A stretch of 53,144 bases of DNA from Nitrososphaerota archaeon (GTDB taxonomy: Archaea > Thermoproteota > Nitrososphaeria > PSMU01), in contig PSMU01000007.1 in the NCBI GenBank assembly GCA_040290255.1, forward strand, positions 1 through 53,144, given 5' to 3'. A model generated the notes under the pieces. That model did no database searches and was not told where the DNA came from. It was given only the letters and a program-made list of their open reading frames with translations. The position numbers and the translations under genes were made by a program. Within the stretch, counting starts at the first letter, position 1; every line of letters begins with the position of its first letter. Positions 1,238 to 43,689 of this stretch are shown one piece after another.

Positions 1238-2263
1238 CTATGGCAAGCCCCCCGCCATGCCCTGGTCAGCGGTCTCTATAGCGCGCCGCGCTTTTTTTGG
1301 CCTGCCGTATACGGCCAGCAGGGCCCCCAGGAGCTCCGGGGCCAGGTCGAGCCCTCTCAGCTCCTCCTGCTCCGCCGCGCCGGCGGCCAGTCGGGCCAGG
1401 AGCGAGGTCAGGTGGTCGGGGCCCCGCGGCGGCAGCCTGCTCAGCAGCACCTCCAAGGCCCGTGCGGCCGGCGGTTGTGCGCGCAGCTTAGCAAAAGGCC
1501 TCGGCAGCCTGACCTCCTCATCATTCGCTTCCTGCCTGTAGAGGCCAAGCGCCCCTATGCGCCCTCTCTTCAGCCTTAGGACGGCCACATCGTAGAGGGC
1601 CTGGGCCAGCGAATCCATTTCCTGCCCCCTCACCAGCCTTAGCCTGCGAAGGCCGGGCAGCAGGGCCTCGCGTAGCCGTGATGTGGGCAAGGGAAGCAGG
1701 TATACGCGGCGCGGGGCCAGCGCCAGCGCTAGGCGGCCCAGCCTCCTCAGCAGCGAGGCCTCCGCTCCTCGGCGCGTTATGTGAGTGCCCTCGAGCACCA
1801 AGAGGAGCCTTCCCGTGCGCTGCGCCACGAGCATTAGAGGCATCGCCTCCTGGCCCAGCAGCGCCGCCAGCCGCGGGGAGGCCGGCCTCACCTCCGCCAC
1901 CAGCGCCCAACGGATGCCGAACCTCCTCAGGAGCAGGGAGCACCTCTCATCGCCCCGCAGCGTGAACCCGCGCCCCGCTGAGCCGAAGAGCAGGTGGAGG
2001 AGCAAAAGGGCCAGCAGGAGCAGCAGGCCTCCCTTGATCGCCCCGCGGTAGAGCGAGAATACCGCCAGCGCCAGCAGGAGCGGGCGCCAGGCCCGGGCTC
2101 CTAGGCCGGCGAGCCCTTTCAGCAAGGCGCCCAAGAGCAGGAGGGCCCTCAACCCCCAGGGATGGCTCGCGTAGAGCAGCAGGGGCACGGCCAGGAGCCA
2201 GGCCCCATGGGCCAGGGCCCAGAGCGCCAAGAGGAGCGTAAGAAGCCTGAGCAGGAGGCCCAT
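1238..2263 (-). CDS. Hypothetical membrane protein: several N-terminal TM helices plus a soluble C-terminal domain
   Basis: 341 aa ORF with a very hydrophobic first ~95 aa. Its start overlaps the upstream stop (TGATG), implying translational coupling. Confidence 0.6.
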   Translation of the reverse strand: MGLLLRLLTLLLALWALAHGAWLLAVPLLLYASHPWGLRALLLLGALLKGLAGLGARAWRPLLLALAVFSLYRGAIKGGLLLLLALLLLHLLFGSAGRGFTLRGDERCSLLLRRFGIRWALVAEVRPASPRLAALLGQEAMPLMLVAQRTGRLLLVLEGTHITRRGAEASLLRRLGRLALALAPRRVYLLPLPTSRLREALLPGLRRLRLVRGQEMDSLAQALYDVAVLRLKRGRIGALGLYRQEANDEEVRLPRPFAKLRAQPPAARALEVLLSRLPPRGPDHLTSLLARLAAGAAEQEELRGLDLAPELLGALLAVYGRPKKARRAIETADQGMAGGLP

Positions 2264-3267
2264 CAGACCACGCCGGCCTCCGTGATGCTCACATAGCCGA
2301 AGCGCGAATAGTCGCGGAGCGCCGGATGGCGGCAGACCCAGAGCAGGCGCGCGCCCTCGCCCTCTCGCGCCGAGTTCAGCGGCTCGGCCCCCTGCAGGCC
2401 GCGCAGGCCGGGCCTGCTCAGCTCGAAGACGAACTTGGCCTCATGGCCCAGCACGAGTCCCCCGTAGGGCCTCCTGTCGAAGGGCTGTGTGGGGTTTATC
2501 GAGGCATGGCTTATCGCGAGCACGGCCAGCCCCAACTCGCTGCAGAGCCTCTGCGCATGTGAGAGGGCCATCGCCATCGCCGCGCTGCGGGCCGGGAGGC
2601 TCTGCGTCGCCCCGAAGAGGCCCTTGAAGGGGGAGGAAAAGGAGTCGTAGATGAGCAGCTTCGCCCCCAGCTCCGAGGCGAGGCGGCGTAGCGGCGAGGC
2701 CGCCAAGGGCGCGCGCTTGAGCCTTATGTCCACCCTTCCTCCCCCCGTCACCTCGAGCGCGGCCTCCACGCCATGAAGGGCCAGCAGGTCCAGCACATCG
2801 GGCGCCTCCAGCAGCAGCATGCAGGGAGGCTTGGCTTCATGCCTCACGGTCAGCTCCTGGCACAGCGCATCCGCCGCCAGGCGAAGCTGCTCCTCGTGGT
2901 AGGAGATGCCGAGCCCGTTGAGCGCGCCGGCCAGCGCCGTGAGCAGCTGGCTCCTCGAGACCCTCCTGCGATGGGCCTTCGGCTCCCTCTCCAGCGCCGC
3001 CCTCTCAACGCATACCTCGCATGAGAACCTGGCGCTAAGCCTGCTCAGCCAGTAAGGGACGAGGCTGGAGGCATAGGACTGCTCGGTGTCCAAGATGATG
3101 GCCGAGTATCCCTGGGCCACGGCGGAGCAGGCGGCCTGGAGCGAGAGGATGCTCTTCCCGAGCCCCTTCTCGCCGAAGACCTGAGAGATGGTGCCCACGA
3201 CGAGCCCTCCCTCACAGGCGAGGTCGAGCGCCTCGCAGCCCGTCTTGAGCCTAGCGCTGAAGCCCAT
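2263..3267 (-). CDS. RadA/RadB-like RecA-family ATPase with an internal insertion
   Basis: LKTGC..LD...GG, Walker A GEKGLGKS, ILDTE, Walker B LLIYDS, C-terminal PYGGLVLGH. No N-terminal HhH domain. Confidence 0.8.
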   Translation of the reverse strand: MGFSARLKTGCEALDLACEGGLVVGTISQVFGEKGLGKSILSLQAACSAVAQGYSAIILDTEQSYASSLVPYWLSRLSARFSCEVCVERAALEREPKAHRRRVSRSQLLTALAGALNGLGISYHEEQLRLAADALCQELTVRHEAKPPCMLLLEAPDVLDLLALHGVEAALEVTGGGRVDIRLKRAPLAASPLRRLASELGAKLLIYDSFSSPFKGLFGATQSLPARSAAMAMALSHAQRLCSELGLAVLAISHASINPTQPFDRRPYGGLVLGHEAKFVFELSRPGLRGLQGAEPLNSAREGEGARLLWVCRHPALRDYSRFGYVSITEAGVV

Positions 3268-4465
3268 GGCCCTTGAGCCTTAGCAGCCCCTTCTGCGTGG
3301 GCACCAGCATCAGCACGCGCACGCCCCTCGCGGCCTCCCTCACCTGAAGCCCGATGAGCCCCTCCTGCATGAGCCTGTCCAGGGCCCGCTCGCAGCCTGC
3401 CCTGCCATGGCGGGGCGCGAAGTAGCTGACCAGGCCCGCCCTCGTCACCTGCCCCCTCTTGGCGACCTCTGCCAGGAGCTGCAGCTGCAGCTCCTCGTCC
3501 GGCGGCCCGGCTTCAGGGACCGCCGCGCTCAGCGGGCCCTTTGGCTCCGCCCAGGAGGGGTAAAAGGTCACGTGGGAGGAGAACTGCGCGTCCTCCAGCA
3601 CGGCCTCGCCCTCCAGCACGGCCTCTTCCCCGCGCCCGCGGCCCAGCCTATTCCAGGCCTCCGATGTATACACCTTCAGCCTGCAGAAGTGGCCAAGGCA
3701 CTCATCCAGCAGGAACCACAGCTCGGAGGCGAAGGCCAGGCCCAGCCCGAGCGATGAAAGCGCCTCGAGCAGCCTATCGGGCCTATGGGGGCCCGGCCCC
3801 CTGCCCGCGAAGAGGGCGTGGGAGGGGGTTATGAGGACGGCGGCGGAGGGCGAGGGGCTCACCTCGCCGATGGTGCGCGACAGCTTCGCGAGCAGCAGCC
3901 AGCCCCCGAGGGCCCTGGCCTCAAAGGGGCTCAGGGGGCTGAAGTCGAAGACGCAGTCCTGCTCGATCACATCCCTGAGCCGGCTCACGCCCAAGGCGTT
4001 CAGCGCGCTCAAGGAGGCGAGCCTGTCCCTGAGCTCTTCGCCCAGGACTCCTCCCCTGTCCAGCAGCATATCGCCGAGGGCGGCGGGGCTGAGGATGGGG
4101 CCCTGGGCCAGCGCCACCTCCGCCAGCGCCGCCAAGAGCCCCTCCTGGGCCGCGGTCAGCGAGAGGCACGAGGAGTAGCCCAGCACCACCAGCCTCGCGT
4201 GCTCCCTATCCCCCGGCTCCACCCTTTGGAGGTCATAGAGCACCTGCTGGCATTCTACCGTGGGCAGATGGCCCCGCAGCTGCCTTGCCAGGGCGCCCTC
4301 TAGGTCGAGCGCCAGCACCCTGAGGCCCGCCTCTTGACACGCCTTGGCCACCGAGCAGGCCAGGCGCGTGGCGCCCCTTCCGAGCAGCAGCAGGCCCGCC
4401 CGGAGGTCCGAGGGCTCAAGGCAGACCTCCTCGCCCGAGCATGTGTGGCCGAGCCTTATGCCCAT
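3251..4465 (-). CDS. HerA/DUF87/VirB4-like P-loop protein with degenerate Walker motifs and a C-terminal winged helix
   Basis: IRLGHT.SGEEV.L.P.DL, LLLLGRGAT (decayed Walker A), VLALDLEG, VFDFS, VLITPSHALF (decayed DEAH), GLGLAFASE; last ~75 aa wHTH-like. ATG 4465 lies ~25 nt from a TTAAA box. Confidence 0.6.
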   Translation of the reverse strand: MGIRLGHTCSGEEVCLEPSDLRAGLLLLGRGATRLACSVAKACQEAGLRVLALDLEGALARQLRGHLPTVECQQVLYDLQRVEPGDREHARLVVLGYSSCLSLTAAQEGLLAALAEVALAQGPILSPAALGDMLLDRGGVLGEELRDRLASLSALNALGVSRLRDVIEQDCVFDFSPLSPFEARALGGWLLLAKLSRTIGEVSPSPSAAVLITPSHALFAGRGPGPHRPDRLLEALSSLGLGLAFASELWFLLDECLGHFCRLKVYTSEAWNRLGRGRGEEAVLEGEAVLEDAQFSSHVTFYPSWAEPKGPLSAAVPEAGPPDEELQLQLLAEVAKRGQVTRAGLVSYFAPRHGRAGCERALDRLMQEGLIGLQVREAARGVRVLMLVPTQKGLLRLKGHGLQR

Positions 4466-4535
4466 GGGCCCCACGGGGCCCGTGCGGGTTTAAGGGCCGC
4501 CCTTGTCGGGCCCGAATACTCAACCTCGACAGGGC

Positions 4536-5045
4536 CTAGCCGCCGGCCTGACCGCGCCCCCTCTCCCGCCTCATCAGCCTCCAGCTGCCCAAGCCCGCGA
4601 GCGCGAACCATACCGCCGGCACCCAAGAAGGCGTCACGCCCCTGGCCACGCCCAGGACCGAGCCCGCGAAGAGCGCCCAAAGCATTAGCGAGATGCCCGC
4701 CCGCGCCCACCTTGGCCAGCCCCTCCGCCGCGAAACGATGGGGGCCCTGCCCAGGCCCGCCACCAGCTTGCCGCCCTCCTCCAAGTATGCGACGAACGCC
4801 TGGCCCAGCTCGGTGGCCGTATACAGCCTCCTCCTGGGGTTCTTGGGGTCCTCCATCGCCTTGATCAGGCCCAGGGCGAGCAGGGGCTCTATGACATCGC
4901 GCTGCACGTTGGGCAGGTTGTGGGACTCCAGCGCCTGTGCCAGCTCGCTGAGGCCCATCCTCCTCCCGCTCAGCTCCCTGAGCGCGCGCCTCCTCCTCTG
5001 GCTGGCCAGCGCGCGCAGCACCTCGCCATAGTAGTCCTCGGCCAC
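4536..5045 (-). CDS. ArsR-like winged-helix regulator with two C-terminal TM helices
   Basis: VLRALAS.RRR..L..L, LSELA, L...GLI, RRLY.AT..G, then two hydrophobic segments. GTG 5045 chosen from TATA spacing. Confidence 0.7.
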   Translation of the reverse strand: MAEDYYGEVLRALASQRRRRALRELSGRRMGLSELAQALESHNLPNVQRDVIEPLLALGLIKAMEDPKNPRRRLYTATELGQAFVAYLEEGGKLVAGLGRAPIVSRRRGWPRWARAGISLMLWALFAGSVLGVARGVTPSWVPAVWFALAGLGSWRLMRRERGRGQAGG

Positions 5046-5173
5046 CGGCTTCCTTATGGCGCCGCTCTTTTTAGCCTCTTTACGCAAGGGCCCCAAGGCC
5101 CTGCATCTGCTGAGGGGCGCCCTGCAGGTCCCCGGCCCAAGAAGGCTATTAAACATGACCAGGAGGACCCGCC

Positions 5174-6679
5174 GTGAAGCTCTACATCAACTGCACCGTC
5201 TACGCGAGCTTCAGGCCGCTCAGGAGATGCCGGGGGCTCTTGGTCGAGGGGCCCTATGTAAGGGACCTTGTGGGCCCATCGGATGCCCAACGGCCCCCAG
5301 TGCTTCATGGGCTGGAGGTGATAGACCTGGGCGGGCGCGTGGTCATGCCGGGCTTCATCGACGCCCATGCGCACCTAGATGGCGTGGGGACGGCGCTCAG
5401 CTGCCTGAACCTCAGGGGCTTGACCTCCATCCAGGAGCTGGGCGAGGCGCTCGCCGCGCATAAGGGCCTGAGCGGCGGCTGGATCCTGGGCGTCGGCTGG
5501 GACCATGAAAAGTTCAGGGAGCGCCGGATGCCCACCAGGTGGGACTTAGATGGATATGTGGCCGAGAAGCCCGTCCTGCTGGTCAGGGTCGATGGGCACT
5601 CAGGGGTCGTCAACACGAGGGCTCTGGAGCTGCTGGCCCTGGAGCGCCTTGAAGAAGGGGTGGAAAGGGATCCTGGGGGCTCGCCGACGGGGGTCATAAA
5701 GGAGCGCGCGCTCGACTTCGCCAGGGAGAGGGCGCTGGAGGATAGGACGCTGGAGGAGGAGAAGGAGGTCCTCCTCAAGGCGCAGGCCGAGTTTCTAAGG
5801 CATGGCGTCACAGGCATAGGGTTCGTGAGCTGCGGGCCCAGGTCGCTGGAGGCGCTCAGGGCCCTGAGGAGGGAGGGCAGGCTTAAGCTGAGGATCTCCG
5901 CCTATCTCACGCCACAGGCCTTCGATGCCCTCGGCATGGCCGATGATGATGAGCTGTTGAGCGTGAAGGGCGTGAAGCTCTTCGCCGACGGCTCCTTCGG
6001 CTCTCGGACCGCCCTGCTCTCCTCCCCCTATGCCGATGACCCCGGCAACTTTGGCCTCGGCGTGAGCTCCAAGGAGGAACTCATCGAGTACTGCCTAAGG
6101 GCCAGGGCCAAGGGCCTTCAGGCGGCCATTCACGCGATAGGCGATAGGGCGCTCGACGTAGTGCTCGAGGTCTATGAAAGGTGCGGGGCCAGGGGCCAGA
6201 GGATAGAGCATGCGTCGCTGATAAGGGATGATCAGTATGAAAGGATAAGGCGCGTGGGGGCCCTGCTCGTCGTGCAGCCCCACTTCACGGTGAGCGACTT
6301 CTGGATGGAGCGGCGCCTGGGCCCCGAGAGGGCGAGAAGCGTCTACCCGTTCGCGAGGATCCTGCGCGAGGGCCTGGAGCAGGCCTTCTCAACCGATGCT
6401 CCAGTGGAGCCCATCGACCCATGGGAGACGGTACATGCCGCGCTCAAGAGGGGGGCCCTCGCGGAGCTGACGGCCGACCAAGGGCTTTCTCTGAACGAGG
6501 CGCTATACCTGTACACGGAGGCCGCCGCCAAGGCCATAGGAAGGCAGGACCTCGGCTCCCTGCTGCCGGGCAAGAGGGCCGACTTCATAGTCCTGGATAG
6601 GGACCCCTTTGAGGGCGAGCTGAGGGGAATCAAGGCGCTCAAGGCCTATGTGGGCGGCGAGGCGGTGCACGAGCTCTAG
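5174..6679 (+). CDS. Amidohydrolase, YtcJ-like (amidohydrolase 3)
   Basis: PGFIDAHAH, KLFADGSFGSRTA, HAIGD, RIEHAS, GKRADF motifs. Confidence 0.9.
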   Translation: MKLYINCTVYASFRPLRRCRGLLVEGPYVRDLVGPSDAQRPPVLHGLEVIDLGGRVVMPGFIDAHAHLDGVGTALSCLNLRGLTSIQELGEALAAHKGLSGGWILGVGWDHEKFRERRMPTRWDLDGYVAEKPVLLVRVDGHSGVVNTRALELLALERLEEGVERDPGGSPTGVIKERALDFARERALEDRTLEEEKEVLLKAQAEFLRHGVTGIGFVSCGPRSLEALRALRREGRLKLRISAYLTPQAFDALGMADDDELLSVKGVKLFADGSFGSRTALLSSPYADDPGNFGLGVSSKEELIEYCLRARAKGLQAAIHAIGDRALDVVLEVYERCGARGQRIEHASLIRDDQYERIRRVGALLVVQPHFTVSDFWMERRLGPERARSVYPFARILREGLEQAFSTDAPVEPIDPWETVHAALKRGALAELTADQGLSLNEALYLYTEAAAKAIGRQDLGSLLPGKRADFIVLDRDPFEGELRGIKALKAYVGGEAVHEL

Positions 6680-6730
6680 GCTTCATAGCCCGCGGGAGTT
6701 AAGCTAAAATGCCGGCGTGCGCCAAAACCT

Positions 6731-6792
6731 GGCGGTGATGAGACTAACCTGCGCCGATCGCCGAGATGAGGAGATGCATCACCGCTGAAGGG
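6731..6792 (+). ncRNA. Candidate C/D-box sRNA 1
   Basis: C GTGATGA 6735-41, 12-nt guide, D' CCGA 6754-57, C' ATGAGGA 6766-72, 12-nt guide, D CTGA 6785-88; intergenic with an AT-rich box at ~6699-6710. Confidence 0.6.
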
Positions 6793-6852
6793 CCTCGCCG
6801 GCCCTCCTTGCCTTATGGCCTTAACGTATATACGCCGCGGGCCATGAGCGCC

Positions 6853-6909
6853 GGGGGATGAGGAGGGTAAAAAGCGCTGAGCCGTGATGGGCCCTGCCGC
6901 CCGACCCCC
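6853..6909 (+). ncRNA. Candidate C/D-box sRNA 2
   Basis: GGGGG, C ATGAGGA 6858-64, guide GGGTAAAAAGCG, D' CTGA 6877-80, C' GTGATGG 6884-90, guide GCCCTGCCGC, D CCGA 6901-04, CCCCC terminal stem; TATATA ~25 nt upstream. Confidence 0.7.
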
Positions 6910-7044
6910 TCTGGAGCCATGGCCCGAGCTGGCCGAGCTGGGATCTTTCTCGCACGGAGCGTCGGGAAAGGATAAATAACAAAGCGGGCATTTTATGCCG
7001 AATGAAGGGAGGGGGGCCGCGGCCCAGGGGGCCCGGGAGAGGCC

Positions 7045-8517
7045 ATGCCAGCCAGGAGGGGAGAGGACTACCTTAGGAGCATAAGGGAGAGGCAGCCCGT
7101 GGTATACTACCAGGGCGAGAGGGTCAGCGATGTCACTTCACACAAGGCCTTCTGCACGGCCGTGAGCACGCTGGCCCGCATGTATGACCTGCAGTGGGAC
7201 CCTCGCTATCATGAACGGCTCACCTTTAGGTCGCCCGATACGGGCGAGCCGGTGGGCATAACCTACATGATACCCCGCAGCAAGGAGGACCTGGCCAGGA
7301 TCAGGAGGGCCCTTATGCTCATTTATGAGCACCTGTTCGGCTTCTTCGGCAGGTGCTACGACTACCTCAACATGTGGACGGCCATCTTCGCCGCCCATGC
7401 CTGGGACTTCTTCGGCGAGCAGGAGCCGCGCTTCGGCGAGAACGTGGTGAAGTATCACAGGAGGTGCAGGGAGCAGGACCTCTTCCTCACGCATGCAATC
7501 GTGGCTCCGTCCGTGGACAGGTCCAAGCTCGCTTCGGAGCTCCGGGACCCCTTCGTCCAGGTGGGCTGCGTCGAGGAGGGGCCCGAGGGGATCGTGGTGA
7601 GGGGGGCCGCGATGGTCTCGACGGCCGCGCCCTATGCCGAAGAGCTCATCTACTTCCCCAACATGCTCAGGGACCCGGACCCTAGGTATGCGCTCGCCTT
7701 TGCCTGCCCCACCAACCTGAGGGGCATAAAGTTCATCGCCAGAAGGGCCTTCACGCCGCGCGAGGGCTTCACCGAGTTCGAGTACCCCATCAGCTCCCGC
7801 TATGAGGAGAGCGACGCCTTCGTGATCTTCGATGATGCGCTCATCCCGTGGGAGAACGTCTTCCTCTATCGCCGGCCCGATAAGATCCCCAAGCTCATGT
7901 GGGGCGGCGTCTACATGAAGGCCTGGTTCAACTACCACTTCTGCATACAGTACTACGCCAGGCTCAAGTTCCTCACGGGCCTTGCCGCGCTCATCGCTAA
8001 GGCGGTGGGCATCGATAAGTTCATCAACGTCCAAGAGAAGATAGGCGAGCTGCTGATCTATCTAAACCTCACCGAGGCCTCGGTCGTGGCCGCCGAGGAG
8101 CTGGGCGAGCAGCTGCCCAACGGGCTCTTCAGGCCCAACCCCCAGATCAGCGTCTCCGGCAGTCACTTTAACATGAAGGCGATGCCCAGGGCCTTCGAAA
8201 TAATAAAGCTGCTGGCCGCGGGCTCGCTCATAGCGCTCCCGTCCTCGGCCAAGGACTTTAAGAACCCGGAGCTGAGGCCCTACCTGGAGAAGTACTTCGC
8301 CGGCTCGGCCCTCTCCGCCGTGGAGAGGGTGAAGCTCTTCAACCTGGCCTGGGATGCGGTGGCCAGCGAGCTGGGCCAGCGGTATGAGCTGTACGATAGG
8401 TTCAGCAGGGGGGACCCCACGATAATGTGGGCGAAGATGTACGAGCAGTTCGACGAGCAGAGGGAGGAGTGCATCAGGCTGGCCAAGAGCTTCCTGGACG
8501 CCATCCCCAACCCATAG
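7045..8517 (+). CDS. hpaB: 4-hydroxyphenylacetate 3-monooxygenase family oxygenase component, copy 1
   Basis: G..YL.S.R...VY..GE.V.DV..H.AF, THAI..P.VDR, E.DA..IFD...IPWE.VF, R.KLF.LAWD...SE.G.R..LY. Confidence 0.9.
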   Translation: MPARRGEDYLRSIRERQPVVYYQGERVSDVTSHKAFCTAVSTLARMYDLQWDPRYHERLTFRSPDTGEPVGITYMIPRSKEDLARIRRALMLIYEHLFGFFGRCYDYLNMWTAIFAAHAWDFFGEQEPRFGENVVKYHRRCREQDLFLTHAIVAPSVDRSKLASELRDPFVQVGCVEEGPEGIVVRGAAMVSTAAPYAEELIYFPNMLRDPDPRYALAFACPTNLRGIKFIARRAFTPREGFTEFEYPISSRYEESDAFVIFDDALIPWENVFLYRRPDKIPKLMWGGVYMKAWFNYHFCIQYYARLKFLTGLAALIAKAVGIDKFINVQEKIGELLIYLNLTEASVVAAEELGEQLPNGLFRPNPQISVSGSHFNMKAMPRAFEIIKLLAAGSLIALPSSAKDFKNPELRPYLEKYFAGSALSAVERVKLFNLAWDAVASELGQRYELYDRFSRGDPTIMWAKMYEQFDEQREECIRLAKSFLDAIPNP

Positions 8518-8561
8518 GCCGCGGCCGGCAAGCGTTAATATAAGGGCCCACGAGCCATGTC

Positions 8562-9338
8562 ATGCTCCCACACGCGCTCTCCTTGGGGCATAGGGCCTCG
8601 TTGGTGCAGCGGGGCAGGTGGCACTATGGCGCGGACTACATCGCCGTCTATTACCGCGTGAGCGCGCAACAGGCCAGGCGGCTGCTGCCCGAGCCCTTGG
8701 AGCCCAGGGAGGAGCTGGCCGTGGCCTACGTGACCGAGATCGTCTCCCTGAGCGAGGCTGATCCCGAGGCGCTGCACGAAAACCCAGCCGGGACGCTGTA
8801 TAGGGAGGCGGCCATAGGCCTCGGCTGCTCGTACGAGGGAAGGGAGGGAATTTACTTCCCCTGCATGTGGGTGGACAAGGATTGGTCCCTGGTCAGGGGC
8901 CTGCTCAACGGTTACCCCAAGAAGATGGCCGACGAGATCGCCATGAGCAAGCCCCATCCGCTAAACCCCCTGATAGGGCCCGCCAGGCCGGGGCTCCGGC
9001 TCTCCGGCTACTGCGTGAGGCAGGGCAGCAGGCTCCTATGGCTCAGGCTCACGCTGCGCAGGCAGGGCGGGGAGGCCGACCTCAGGAGGTTCGGCAGCGT
9101 CTTTGGGCTGAGGCTCTTCCCGGCCACACATCAGGAGCAGGCGGAGGTCAGGGAGCTCGTGGAAGTGCTCAGGGAGCCGGGCGGCGTCGCGAATGTGTGG
9201 GTGGGCGACGCGGAGCTCGAGCTGGGCGAGGCGAGGAACGAAGAGCTGCTTCCCCTTAGGCCGCGTGAGGTCCTTTATGGCGCCTGGTACAGCGCCGGCT
9301 TCACCATAGCGGGCGCCAGGGTGCTGAGGAGGCTCTAG
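8562..9338 (+). CDS. Acetoacetate decarboxylase family protein
   Basis: WHYG, LLPEPL, YREA, WVD.D...RG...GYPKK (Schiff-base Lys motif). Confidence 0.85.
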   Translation: MLPHALSLGHRASLVQRGRWHYGADYIAVYYRVSAQQARRLLPEPLEPREELAVAYVTEIVSLSEADPEALHENPAGTLYREAAIGLGCSYEGREGIYFPCMWVDKDWSLVRGLLNGYPKKMADEIAMSKPHPLNPLIGPARPGLRLSGYCVRQGSRLLWLRLTLRRQGGEADLRRFGSVFGLRLFPATHQEQAEVRELVEVLREPGGVANVWVGDAELELGEARNEELLPLRPREVLYGAWYSAGFTIAGARVLRRL

Positions 9339-9384
9339 CGCAATGGGAGCAGGGATATAAAGTAAGGGCGCTAAGCAGACGAGC

Positions 9385-10716
9385 GTGGGCTCTGGGCAGC
9401 GGCTCTACTGGGAGCCCTATGTGGAGCTGATGAGCCCGCGGGAGCTGAGGGCCCTGCAGCTCAAGAGGCTGCGCTACATATTGAGCTATGTCTACGAGAG
9501 GAGCGCCTTCTACAGGCGGCGCTTCAAGGAGCGCGGAGTGCATCCCAGCGACCTAGCGGCGCTCAGGGACCTGCGCAAGTTCCCCTTCACCACGAAGGAG
9601 GACCTCAGGCTGCACAGCTATCCTCACGGCGGCGACTTCCTGTGCGTGCCCCGGGAAGAGCTGATCTGTTGGCATATGACCTCGGGCACCACGGGAAAGC
9701 CCACCGTAGGAGCCTACACGTTGAGGGACCATGAGACCTGGATGAACCTCATGGCCAGGACGCTGGTGACGGCGGGCGTGAGGAAGGGGGACGTGCTGCT
9801 CAACATCTACGGCTACGGCCTCTTCACGGGTGGGCTGGGCTTTCACCAGAGCGCGCACCTGGTGGGCGCTGGCGTAATACCCTGGAGCGTGGGCCGCACG
9901 GAGGCCCTGCTCGACGTCCTCTCCGACTTCGGCGTGACGGTGATGACGGGCACGCCCTCGTATGAGCTGTACATCCTGGAGCTGCTCGGAAAGAGGGGTA
10001 TCGACCCAAGGCGCCTACCGCTCAGGATCACGATACCGGGCGCGGAGATGTGGACCGAGCAGCTCAGGAGGAGGCTCGAGGAGGGCTTTGGCCTTAAGGA
10101 GAAAGGAGGGGGGGCCAGGAACGTATATGGGGCCACCGAGCTGCTCGGCCCGGGCAGCGGGCAGGAGTGTGAGCAGGAGAACGGCTTCCACTTCTGGGTG
10201 GACCACTTCTACTTGGAGCTCGTAGATCCCGAGACCGGGGAGCCCGTGGGGCCGGGCGAGGAGGGCGAGATGGTGGTCACCACGATGACCAAGGAGGCAA
10301 TGCCGCTCATCAGATATAGGATGAGGGACATAACCCTGCTCGACGAGGAACCCTGTGCCTGCGGGCGGCGGGCCTTCCCGCGCTGCATGTGGATAAGGGG
10401 CAGGGTCGATGATGTGATACATTACAAAGGGGCCAAGGTCTGGCCCGAAGCGATCCAGAGGGCCCTGCTGAAGTTCCCCGAGGTGAAGGAGTATCAAGTG
10501 CTCGTGGACAGATCCCCCACGGCCGGGCGCTTCCTGATCAGGGTCGAGCTCCAGGAAGGCACCGATTCCCCCCAGCTCAGGGAGGAGGTGGCAAGGGAGC
10601 TCAGAAGAACGCTCATCTTCGTCAACCCCGAGCTCGAGTTCGTCAAGGAGGGGACGCTGCCCAGGTATGAGGGAAAGAGCAGGCGCGTGATCGTAAAGGA
10701 GGCGCAGCTGACATGA
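9385..10716 (+). CDS. paaK: Phenylacetate-CoA ligase family protein
   Basis: PFTTKEDLR, TSGTTGKP, YGLFTGGLGFH, GTPSY, MPLIRYR..D, GRVDD. Confidence 0.9.
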   Translation: MGSGQRLYWEPYVELMSPRELRALQLKRLRYILSYVYERSAFYRRRFKERGVHPSDLAALRDLRKFPFTTKEDLRLHSYPHGGDFLCVPREELICWHMTSGTTGKPTVGAYTLRDHETWMNLMARTLVTAGVRKGDVLLNIYGYGLFTGGLGFHQSAHLVGAGVIPWSVGRTEALLDVLSDFGVTVMTGTPSYELYILELLGKRGIDPRRLPLRITIPGAEMWTEQLRRRLEEGFGLKEKGGGARNVYGATELLGPGSGQECEQENGFHFWVDHFYLELVDPETGEPVGPGEEGEMVVTTMTKEAMPLIRYRMRDITLLDEEPCACGRRAFPRCMWIRGRVDDVIHYKGAKVWPEAIQRALLKFPEVKEYQVLVDRSPTAGRFLIRVELQEGTDSPQLREEVARELRRTLIFVNPELEFVKEGTLPRYEGKSRRVIVKEAQLT

Positions 10717-43112: not shown

Positions 43113-43433
43113 CTATCTAAGGAGGTTCCATGCGAATGCCAGCGCGGCGAGCACCAGGCCGCCCATGATGAACTCCCTTCCCCGGCGCCTATTCATGTTC
43201 GTGAAGTAGAGCAGCGCGCCCAGCGCCAACAGGGCCGGCGAGAGGAGCCCGCTGAGGAGGGCAACTAACCCCAACAACCTGAGCGCCACCAGGCTCGCCA
43301 GGTCCGCTATGGCCTGAAAGAGCCTGTCCAAGAACGTGGCGATCTGGCCCTCTATCTCCTTGAGCTGATCTGAGCCGGGGCTGAACTGCATTAGGGACGC
43401 CAGCTCGCGTGCCAGCCAGGGCGCTAGGCGCAT
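43113..43433 (-). CDS. Small membrane protein, VirB2/TrbC pilin-like topology
   Basis: Amphipathic helix, hydrophobic helix, basic loop NRRRGRE, second hydrophobic helix; TTATAT ~22 nt upstream. Confidence 0.5.
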   Translation of the reverse strand: MRLAPWLARELASLMQFSPGSDQLKEIEGQIATFLDRLFQAIADLASLVALRLLGLVALLSGLLSPALLALGALLYFTNMNRRRGREFIMGGLVLAALAFAWNLLR

Positions 43434-43689
43434 CTTGGGCAGCCCAGCGCCCACATATAAGCGCCCATGCCCCCGCTTGATTCAGCTTCCCGACCCTCTA
43501 GCGCTGCCCTTACCTTCCTTTAGAGCTCCCTTAGCGCGTGATGGGGCCATCAGGTTGCTTGAGCATCGTACAGGCCTTGGATAAGCCGTGCCTAGGCGCT
43601 TCATTTCTACGGAGTGGCCACCAGGCGCTTTGGGCCCCTGCCCTCGACGCGCTTTGACGCCAGGAGCCAGCCCTATCTGGGAGCTTTCT

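Follow-up and report, generated by a model that had tools for sequence, protein, structure and literature searches.

The present work concerns a three-gene operon carried by an uncultured archaeon of the Nitrososphaerota, from soil or a hot spring, and located on a contig of 53,144 nucleotides (nt) (PSMU01000007.1, assembly GCA_040290255.1, positions 1 to 53,144 of the forward strand), the whole of which is called the window hereafter. The window is contig 8 of a genome bin of 1.21 Mb, which comprises 9 contigs and is 91% complete. Positions 1238-4474 are filled by three open reading frames (ORFs), all on the minus strand, in a region whose G+C content is 63-71%. Gene 1 occupies 3251-4465 when read from an ATG (404 amino acids (aa), the form of the database copy P0001) or 3251-4474 when read from a GTG (407 aa), gene 2 occupies 2263-3267 (334 aa) and gene 3 occupies 1238-2263 (341 aa). 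It is highly probable that they encode, respectively, a catalytically dead HerA/VirB4-type protein, a RadA paralogue and a membrane protein, and we tentatively propose that these proteins couple DNA transfer to recombination.

Genes 1 and 2 overlap by 17 nt and genes 2 and 3 have one base in common (TGATG), overlapping stops and starts being the usual state across the operon loci. A TATA-like box, CCTTAAA, lies at 4489-4495 on the minus strand, 24-30 nt 5' of the gene 1 ATG. When the regions 5' of gene 1 were compared by eye, 7 of 27 had a CCTT(T)AA(A/T) box at an equal distance, namely those of the window and of L039, L040, L041, L051, L052 and L053 (L numbers designate loci; 28 loci from other genomes were compared). 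CCTTAAA is thus likely to serve as the promoter for an operon mRNA with a short leader or none. An earlier reading of the window by a model, made from the letters alone (the sequence-only reading), had described three overlapping genes behind one promoter near 4490, and both the ORFs and the conserved box bear this out. A chromosomal, single-copy, three-gene operon with predicted co-transcription is well supported. Among sequencing runs, 9 holders of this DNA are listed, from 4 studies and all of DNA, with no RNA holder listed.

For gene 1, no match was found in Pfam, in NCBIfam or among PDB sequences; Pfam gave nothing at E <= 1 for gene 1 or three of its relatives, and the gathering score of PF01935 was not reached. 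A word-indexed search of 5.8 billion proteins returned gene 1 itself and one relative at 50% identity, nothing else. The fold was recognised with structure models and profiles. In the AlphaFold2 model, the predicted local distance difference test score (pLDDT) was 67.9 on average, 77-92 in the blocks of residues 41-200 and ~65-86 in the C-terminal winged-helix part. The best solved structures retrieved by Foldseek were the ATPase domain of the Thermoanaerobacter VirB4 (4ag6/4ag5, E 6.9e-5 to 2.4e-4, template modelling (TM) score 0.44-0.50), and HerA was matched as well (9x1m, E 6e-4). The ESM Atlas model (pLDDT 0.74) resembled 8 DUF87/HerA_C clusters over residues 1-307 with TM scores of 0.65-0.67. 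A family alignment was built from gene 1 and its positional homologues (A1, 18 sequences with 11-50% identity to the window protein, the split gene 1 of L027 being excluded), and its profile found 126 proteins at E <= 1e-3 among 1.84 billion representatives. Ten of the weak longer matches were scanned; Pfam DUF87 was present in 8/10 and a Walker A motif in all eight. Finally, HHalign aligned the gene 1 family with the family of CedD-like ATPases described below with a probability of 96.1% (E 2.8e-9), gene 1 residues 6-196 falling on residues 194-408.

Together with the motif and family alignments, these comparisons delimit an ATPase domain at residues ~1-307 of gene 1 (3545-4465, minus strand) from which the catalytic motifs are gone. 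When bona fide DUF87 ATPases were aligned to the gene 1 profile, their Walker A (G..GxGK[ST]) fell on GRGATR, which begins at residue 29, and their Walker B (hhhhEE/DE) on LITPSH, of which ITPSH begins at residue 212 (404-aa numbering). Neither motif was present in any of the 18 aligned family members, whereas the DUF87 proteins aligned alongside all had GK[ST]. Since both motifs are absent in 18/18 members, the inactivation is an old, common property of the family and not a recent decay; it extends over at least seven taxonomic families. Other positions are kept: Glu141 (407-aa numbering) is nearly invariant, with an ESSGxEK motif around it in most relatives, and the single residue invariant throughout the family is Gly347. 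The C-terminal part of gene 1 (residues ~325-404, 3254-3493, minus strand) is a winged helix-turn-helix of PadR/MarR type, as judged from Foldseek, in which ranks 6-50 are PadR/LmrR/MarR-type regulators (E 3e-3 to 3e-2, 66-97 columns), a fit to the last ~80 residues.

These results are in agreement with the sequence-only reading of gene 1, which had proposed a HerA/DUF87 scaffold with Walker A reduced to GRGAT and Walker B to ITPSH and a winged helix-turn-helix added; the P-loop fold on which it depended was recovered as a DUF87/HerA/VirB4-type fold. The models thus give good support to placing gene 1 in the DUF87/HerA-VirB4 branch of the FtsK-HerA superfamily, with a P-loop ASCE fold that is predicted to be catalytically dead and to which a winged helix was added. 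Its description as an anciently inactivated paralogue of the HerA/VirB4/CedD-type ring ATPases, with an acquired and putatively DNA-binding winged-helix tail, is likewise well supported. In L027 (genome G012, 6071-7226), gene 1 lies in two ORFs of 234 and 175 aa, in an assembly of 340 contigs, which may reflect a frameshift or an assembly error.

Gene 2 (2263-3267, minus strand) encodes a RadA-core ATPase, recognised by Pfam Rad51 (36 bits for a cut-off of 22), by a profile search against the PDB and by alignment with the RadA genes of the same genome. The RecA core was found with its Walker A (GEKGLGKS, residue 32), its Walker B (LLIYDS, residue 204) and a catalytic Glu. In the gene 2 family alignment (A3, 19 sequences) the invariant residues include G32, G37 and K38 (Walker A), D60, E62, D208 and S209 (Walker B), K215, R227, H254, G269 and G270. 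Relative to the RadA proteins of the genome, gene 2 bears an insertion of ~90 aa after DTEQSY, between the Walker A strand and Walker B, and this insertion is conserved, a relative at 36% identity aligning full-length. The sequence-only reading, in which gene 2 was an intact RecA-family ATPase with a long insertion, therefore holds. More than 100 database proteins of 322-367 aa match gene 2 with 94-100% query coverage and 48-97% identity, a few of them named as proteins from metagenome-assembled genomes of Thaumarchaeota or Nitrososphaerales.

Against the PDB, the A3 profile matched RadA (4e-22), Rad51/DMC1 (~1e-18) and KaiC (6.6e-13) in this order. The ArlH models gave 16-24 bits for cut-offs of 194-215, and the KaiC models also remained far under their cut-offs. 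By these comparisons gene 2 is closer to the RadA/Rad51 recombinases than to KaiC/ArlH. Two further regions point in the same direction: FKGLFGATQSLPARS of gene 2 aligns with HRAEFTGRSTLAERQ of RadA, and H254...PYGG aligns with NQ...PTGG of RadA, the former being 2 residues shorter. We take these positions to correspond to the putative DNA-binding loops L1 and L2, respectively. That gene 2 is an intact RadA-type ATPase is well supported by the alignments, and it probably retains the L1- and L2-like regions of the recombinases. Besides gene 2, the genome carries two RadA genes of full length (387 and 325 aa) and a pair of short paralogues. The coordinates of these RadA genes and paralogues are G000:C3:313950-314666, C9:14755-15471, C9:14312-14683 and C3:331555-331914, and one short paralogue adjoins RadA on contig 9. 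A complex prediction for the products of genes 1 and 2 from A1 and A3 scored 0.00 for a mark of 0.32, a result that counts neither for nor against binding.

Gene 3 consists of a membrane part (residues ~1-93, 1985-2263, minus strand), with hydrophobic helices, followed by a modelled cytoplasmic domain of alpha/beta type that ends in a helical tail (residues ~117-337, within 1238-2263, minus strand). Three strongly hydrophobic segments were detected in a hydropathy scan and five helices were seen within residues 3-93 of the AlphaFold2 model (mean pLDDT 68). No Pfam or NCBIfam family was found for gene 3, and no recurring Pfam family among the 14 family members scanned. The profile of 14 positional homologues (A4, 12-31% identity) recovered the downstream gene of three independent loci full-length (E 1e-21 to 5e-30), which argues for a real, fast-evolving family. 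The sequence-only reading had attributed several transmembrane helices to gene 3, which stands, and had compared a segment beginning at residue 153 (LLLVLEG...) to VirB4 N-terminal/PrgI-associated domains, which does not stand beyond a weak lead: the Atlas model has TM scores of 0.42-0.45 to VirB4-like clusters of Bacillota (CD1110/TraE/PrgI-DUF87), DUF87 or P-loop_TraG is present in 7 of the 10 Atlas rows, and in one cluster 91% are fused to PrgI. The families that are designated f3 and f9 have a shorter membrane gene (103-143 aa), after which another gene follows.

Conservation extends to the trio as a whole. In 27 of the 28 loci, the gene directly upstream of gene 2 belongs to the gene 1 family, a count that includes 17 sequences used in the profile, the match being 10/11 for the independent loci. 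A protein with at least two N-terminal hydrophobic segments is encoded directly downstream in 26 of the 28, both misses being contig ends with less than 200 nt left. Since this gene order recurs in 27/28 loci for gene 1 and in 26/28 for the membrane gene, the arrangement is not due to chance. The exception for gene 1 is L043 (genome G080, family f10, 6324-7304), in which only short ORFs are seen upstream of the RadA paralogue; the 331-aa protein encoded downstream in this locus matches the gene 3 profile weakly (E 5e-4). Close relatives were used to estimate the ratio of nonsynonymous to synonymous substitution rates (dN/dS). This ratio was 0.18-0.35 for gene 1 (7 pairs, plus one saturated), 0.04-0.09 in 7 pairs and 0.23 in one for gene 2 (8 pairs) and 0.32-0.54 for gene 3 (5 pairs). 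From these values, all three genes are under purifying selection, and the decay that would have been expected of abandoned genes, with dN/dS near 1, is not seen (0.04-0.54 over the three genes).

The gene 2 family is present in 18 of 41 relatives. Used as the marker of the operon, gene 2 was found in 33 of 301 genomes sampled across the class, in one copy each. By family, it was present in 6/9 genomes of f2, 13/14 of f3, 7/10 of f5, 1/1 of f9, 2/2 of f10 and 3/3 of f13, and it was found in none of f4 (0/181), f12 (0/39), f7 (0/17), f11 (0/9) and f6 (0/8). No further genome was detected among 301 sampled over the phylum (43 of them from f4). The operon is therefore predicted, with good support, to be confined to some lineages of one archaeal class, the Nitrososphaeria. 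In f5 it is flanked by ELP3, a creatininase-family gene, GatD and GatE, which indicates a housekeeping and not a mobile setting. Three points are new in these comparisons: the module is spread, to judge by the homologues found, over seven or more families of the class; gene 3 in its long form makes up a family of its own, as its profile indicates; and a CedD-like paralogue has the distribution of the operon, as far as homologue searches tell.

Immediately downstream of the operon, at 220-1161 of the window (minus strand), lies a DUF1152 gene (Pfam E 2e-90). It was found in 10 of the 301 class genomes, i.e., in 9/14 genomes of f3 and in the present one, and as this distribution is unlike that of the operon the gene probably lies outside it. 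In L003 (genome G033, 8506-10651) the operon adjoins two divergent ORFs of 382 and 308 aa, which resemble a restriction enzyme and a DNA methyltransferase by appearance alone.

An active DUF87 ATPase directly follows the operon in 2 of the 28 loci, L042 and L053. In L042 (genome G045, 842-2719) it is a 625-aa protein with a Walker A motif, and in L053 (6079-9003) a 974-aa protein with five N-terminal hydrophobic segments, a membrane domain thus being fused to a HerA-like ATPase. Elsewhere in the genome from which the window comes there are 4 DUF87 matches, and the one nearest the L053 protein (E 1.6e-32) is a 555-aa protein on contig 5 with the Walker A motif GATGSGKS (G000:C5:34361-36025; 7362-9029 of L054). 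Its gene stands in a housekeeping context, with an IF-2B-family gene on one side and an AAA_18 kinase-like gene on the other, and a 66-aa hydrophobic ORF is located directly 5' of it (L048, 712-912). The best NCBIfam model for this protein is CedD, the 'DNA-translocating ATPase'. The active HerA-like partner that the sequence-only reading had suggested looking for elsewhere in the genome is thus present as a CedD-like ATPase, found in nearly the same genomes as the operon. In the Sulfolobales, CedD has been shown to be indispensable for DNA import (PMC11823120; bioRxiv 2024.09.27.615246).

The phyletic patterns of the operon and of this ATPase are nearly identical. CedD-like orthologues (E <= 1e-30) were found in 33 of the 301 class genomes, 32 of which also carry the operon, and the discordant genomes, one in each direction, have a completeness of 59% and 75%. 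Within families f2, f3 and f5, both were present in 25 genomes, only one of them in 1 + 1 and neither in 6. Among the 15 orthologues retrieved, all match Walker A and 14 have the canonical GxTGSGK[ST]. Taken together, the HHalign result and the co-occurrence indicate that gene 1 and the live CedD-like ATPase are distant paralogues with matching distributions.

The operon both resembles and departs from known systems. The nearest comparison is the Ced system of the Sulfolobales (CedA, CedA1, CedA2, CedB, CedD and CedE), which imports chromosomal DNA for recombinational repair and which, like the present module, is chromosomal and non-mobile and involves VirB4/HerA-clade proteins and dispersed genes. 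CedB and CedD are found together in that system, with N-domains that correspond to complementary portions of the VirB4 N-domain (bioRxiv 2024.09.27.615246). Two paralogous HerA-clade proteins are also found here, and the ATPase that co-occurs with the operon matches the CedD model best. The differences are that this match lies far under the CedD cut-off and no CedB is present, that one paralogue of the pair is catalytically inactive and bears a winged helix, and that a RadA paralogue and another membrane protein share its operon, which is not described for Ced. In the VirB3-VirB4 pair of type IV secretion, including the PrgI-VirB4 fusions of Bacillota, the C-terminal ATPase domain of VirB4 is the best solved-structure match of gene 1, and the layout of gene 3, with membrane helices and then an alpha/beta domain, is a weak likeness. 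Unlike VirB4, gene 1 is without Walker motifs and corresponds to the C-domain only, so that the N- and C-domains would be separate proteins with a RadA gene between them.

HerA, which acts in end resection with NurA, Mre11 and Rad50, resembles gene 1 by its fold and by the DUF87 neighbourhood, and shares with it a functional link to homologous recombination, proposed in the case of gene 1. It is an active, soluble, hexameric translocase with a HAS-barrel N-domain, whereas gene 1 is dead, begins directly with the ATPase fold, bears a winged helix and has a membrane protein as a partner. As for gene 2, it recalls the core-only archaeal RadA paralogues RadB and aRadC, as it consists of a RecA core with intact Walker motifs and no helix-hairpin-helix (HhH) domain, its nearest relatives being RadA, Rad51 and RadB. 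It differs from them by the ~90-aa conserved insertion, by scores below the equivalog cut-offs and by its location between a dead HerA-like gene and a membrane protein gene.

These data support a DNA-transfer origin of the operon, and we propose that its products form a membrane-anchored DNA-handling complex which, with the CedD-like ATPase, couples DNA transfer to recombination; we put the probability of this reading at about 0.4. The three proteins would assemble at the membrane, with gene 3 as the anchor. Gene 1 would serve as a scaffold without catalytic activity, its winged helix holding the DNA, and might also repress its own promoter; it could dock onto, or mix into, the ring of the unlinked active CedD-like ATPase. 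Gene 2 would bind the DNA handled there, by which transmembrane DNA transport would be coupled to homologous recombination. From the resemblance to Ced, we infer a function in chromosomal DNA exchange and repair; that the proteins form a complex, that they bind DNA and which substrate is transported in which direction are all presumed elements of this model. A more specific version, which we consider unlikely as a whole, is that some Nitrososphaeria possess an unrecognised Ced-like DNA-exchange machine in which CedD-like translocation would be coupled at the membrane to recombinase loading, the gene 1 adaptor docking gene 2 on incoming DNA and gene 3 replacing the VirB3/VirB4 N-terminal part.

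Several observations weigh against the DNA-transfer proposal. Firstly, gene 1 without ATP hydrolysis cannot move DNA alone, and the ATPase that could do so is a distant relative of CedD only, with 171.8-171.9 bits for a cut-off of 600; for CedB the best match was 24 bits for a cut-off of 700, none being found in the genome. The co-occurrence of operon and CedD-like gene is also partly phylogenetic, as kin are not independent and the positive lineages are maybe those nearest this genome, and the one control gene used was the DUF1152 neighbour (10/301, a different pattern). Secondly, gene 2 scored below all NCBIfam equivalog cut-offs (RadB 45 bits vs 172.4, RadA 37.3 vs 259) and lacks the N-terminal HhH domain, the RadA genes of the genome carrying at least 90 extra N-terminal residues. 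Thirdly, the likeness of gene 3 to the VirB4 N-domain is kept as a lead only, since it was reproduced neither against solved structures (AlphaFold2 model vs PDB, nothing, best E 1.7) nor by profiles, which matched neither the N-terminal regions of DUF87 proteins nor the N-domain of the CedD-like family (HHalign probability 0.4%). Lastly, the module is missing from 268 of the 301 class genomes and is thus dispensable.

To these must be added the parts of a transfer system that were not found. A VirB6/CedA-like channel elsewhere in the genome, also suggested by the sequence-only reading, did not emerge: TrbL/VirB6 (PF04610) gave no match over the cut-off in 5 genomes, the CedA and CedE models not being searched. 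Nor did VirB6, VirB2 or VirD4 genes turn up among the ORFs listed for the 28 loci, a part of these ORFs having been compared with family libraries. A 113-aa protein encoded at 43113-43454 of the window (minus strand), with two hydrophobic helices around a conserved LYF.H.NRR.GRD loop, was considered as a pilin (in the alignment of this candidate, L057, L063 and L065 were excluded). It had no NCBIfam match at E <= 10 and matched no pilin in the PDB, so that the idea is unsupported. Its homologues were found in 20 of the 301 class genomes, 19 of them operon-positive, with weak E-values (1e-8 to 5e-4), for which reason non-detection in distant families means little. In 8 of 11 loci of relatives this gene adjoins one for a polytopic protein, with pelota next. 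The polytopic neighbour was rejected as a VirB6/CedA channel, as the 4 copies scanned matched RseP-type intramembrane protease and PDZ models.

Another way to read the same genes is as a regulatory switch. In this case, the RadA/KaiC-like gene 2 would serve in nucleotide-dependent signalling and would control the winged helix of gene 1, tethered to the membrane by gene 3, with no DNA transport at all. The model for it is ArlH acting on ArlI, together with the KaiC-like ATPases of archaea. In the archaellum motor ArlH-ArlI-ArlJ, a RecA/KaiC-fold ATPase, a ring-ATPase-fold protein and a membrane protein are likewise encoded together, which is an analogy only; ArlI is an active ATPase of the secretion superfamily and ArlJ a large polytopic protein, and gene 1 is, unlike ArlI, a dead DUF87 protein, with gene 2 scoring far under the ArlH cut-offs. 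In favour of a switch are the winged helix of gene 1, whose PadR/MarR type is characteristic of transcription factors, the absence of catalytic motifs from gene 1 and the weak matches of gene 2 to KaiC/ArlH models, to which the DNA upstream of the operon adds further arguments.

Two inverted repeats, both candidate operators, were noted in the window, AAGGGCGGCCCTT at 4492-4504 (minus strand), overlapping the TATA-like box, and GGGCCCCGTGGGGCCC at 4466-4481 (minus strand), adjoining the start codon; they may be due to chance, their arms being of just 6-7 bp in DNA of 70% G+C. In relatives, longer lineage-specific palindromes occur at -50 to -80, with 10-bp arms in L031, L035, L051 and L053, and many loci have a perfect palindrome immediately 5' of the TATA-like box. 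In family f3, loci L029-L036 show a perfect palindrome of TTTGCAAAAATTTTTGCAAA type at ~-50 to -70 from gene 1, 5' of a CCTTATAAGGGG-type box; L031, L033 and L035 have TTTGCAAAAATTTTTGCAAA itself or close variants, and L030 and L032 the related TTTGCAAA or TTCAAAA palindromes. The 10-bp-arm palindromes of L051 and L053 are unrelated to that of f3 and stand at the same position, and shorter ones are found in L040, L041 and L052. Lineage-specific candidate operators ahead of a fast-evolving winged-helix protein, of which the dN/dS of gene 1 is a measure, suggest that the gene 1 protein may autoregulate its own promoter. Such autoregulation is compatible with the DNA-transfer reading as well, and the two readings are not exclusive. 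What a switch leaves unexplained is that the whole dead ATPase domain is under purifying selection, that the CedD-like ATPase has a near-identical phyletic pattern and that L042 and L053 have an active DUF87 gene attached to the operon; the greater closeness of gene 2 to RadA/Rad51 than to KaiC, with its L1- and L2-like regions kept, also speaks against it. We regard a purely regulatory function as rather unlikely.

A further winged-helix protein is encoded upstream of the operon, at 4536-5156 (minus strand, 206 aa), 70 nt ahead of the gene 1 ATG. It combines an ArsR/Csa3-like winged helix, for which only weak ArsR, HTH_27 and Csa3 matches were obtained, with a C-terminal hydrophobic region. 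ORFs of like layout stand directly 5' of gene 1 in L044 (9051-9566) and L045 (9366-9833); no such ORF was noted in the remaining neighbourhood listings, in which no systematic search was made. No sequence similarity was detected between the 206-aa ORF and any ORF of 25 other loci, L044 and L045 included. This ORF was therefore dropped as a fourth member of the operon, since its layout alone recurs and its sequence does not; it is possibly an accessory regulator, whose membership of the module is uncertain.

The combination of a membrane part, an FtsK-HerA fold and a C-terminal winged helix is also the domain logic of FtsK, and the operon could by analogy be a split FtsK-like machine that clears or resolves chromosomes at the division site, with gene 3 as the anchor, gene 1 as a ring with a gamma-like winged helix and gene 2 and/or the CedD-like ATPase as the motor. 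The single-copy, chromosomal state of the operon and its housekeeping context fit such a role. A core division function would be oddly distributed in only 33 of 301 class genomes, with none in the two largest families (0/181 and 0/39), and its ring domain would be catalytically dead. Moreover, the inspected loci showed no division or Xer genes linked to the operon, and the winged helix matches PadR/MarR regulators, FtsK gamma not being among the matches listed. We thus consider a division machine quite unlikely.

It is very unlikely, too, that the operon is the remnant of a mobile element, such as an integrated conjugative element, or a defence against plasmids or viruses built on a HerA-like scaffold. 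HerA-like proteins do occur in several defence systems, NCBIfam anti-phage HerA models weakly match the linked active paralogues, the putative restriction-modification pair (by appearance) adjoins the operon in G033, and the distribution within the class is patchy. Against this, PADLOC families gave no match for genes 1-3 at E <= 0.01, the operon has one copy per genome and conserved housekeeping flanks in f5, its family-level pattern looks vertical and its genes are under purifying selection. In the ORF listings and Pfam scans of the inspected loci, no integrase, tRNA-flanking repeat or conjugation gene was seen, repeats and tRNA genes not having been searched for. Finally, it is scarcely credible that the genes are simply decaying, with a dead ATPase and its neighbours drifting to loss and having no present function: all catalytic motifs are lost in gene 1, evolution is fast (identity to relatives 11-50% for gene 1 and 12-31% for gene 3) and gene 1 is split in L027, yet the window and nearly all of the 28 other loci have each of the three reading frames uninterrupted, the dN/dS values given above hold for each gene and the motif loss, being family-wide over at least seven taxonomic families, is ancient and stable.

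As a whole, the interpretation offered by the sequence-only reading is partly supported: the gene identities and their conservation are confirmed, and a function leading from DNA uptake to recombination is plausible but unproven. No published description of this operon was found; supplements were outside the scope of the search, and those of the two CedD papers may show CedD relatives beyond Crenarchaeota. In the parts of the Nitrosocaldus genome article that were available (PMC5797428), RadA, RadB, HerA-NurA and the VirB4 of integrated elements are listed and this module is not, and the accessible part of Beltran et al. 2023 (PMC9905601) contains nothing on this operon.

The interest of the operon lies in what stands behind one promoter, i.e., a recombinase paralogue, a dead copy of a transport ATPase with predicted DNA binding and a membrane protein, with the distribution of a CedD-like ATPase. 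To our knowledge, the Ced and Ted systems of Crenarchaeota are the only ones for which natural DNA exchange in archaea is understood, and the route by which imported DNA reaches the recombination machinery is not known. With this operon, a direct hand-over from transport to recombination becomes testable, and if the DNA-transfer reading is true, Ced-like biology would be extended to the Nitrososphaeria. The operon is also a clear case of an anciently inactivated ring-ATPase paralogue, for which a scaffold role is proposed. If the regulatory explanation were the true one, it would represent a new kind of membrane-tethered transcription switch in archaea. Under either reading, three protein families without functional annotation are concerned.

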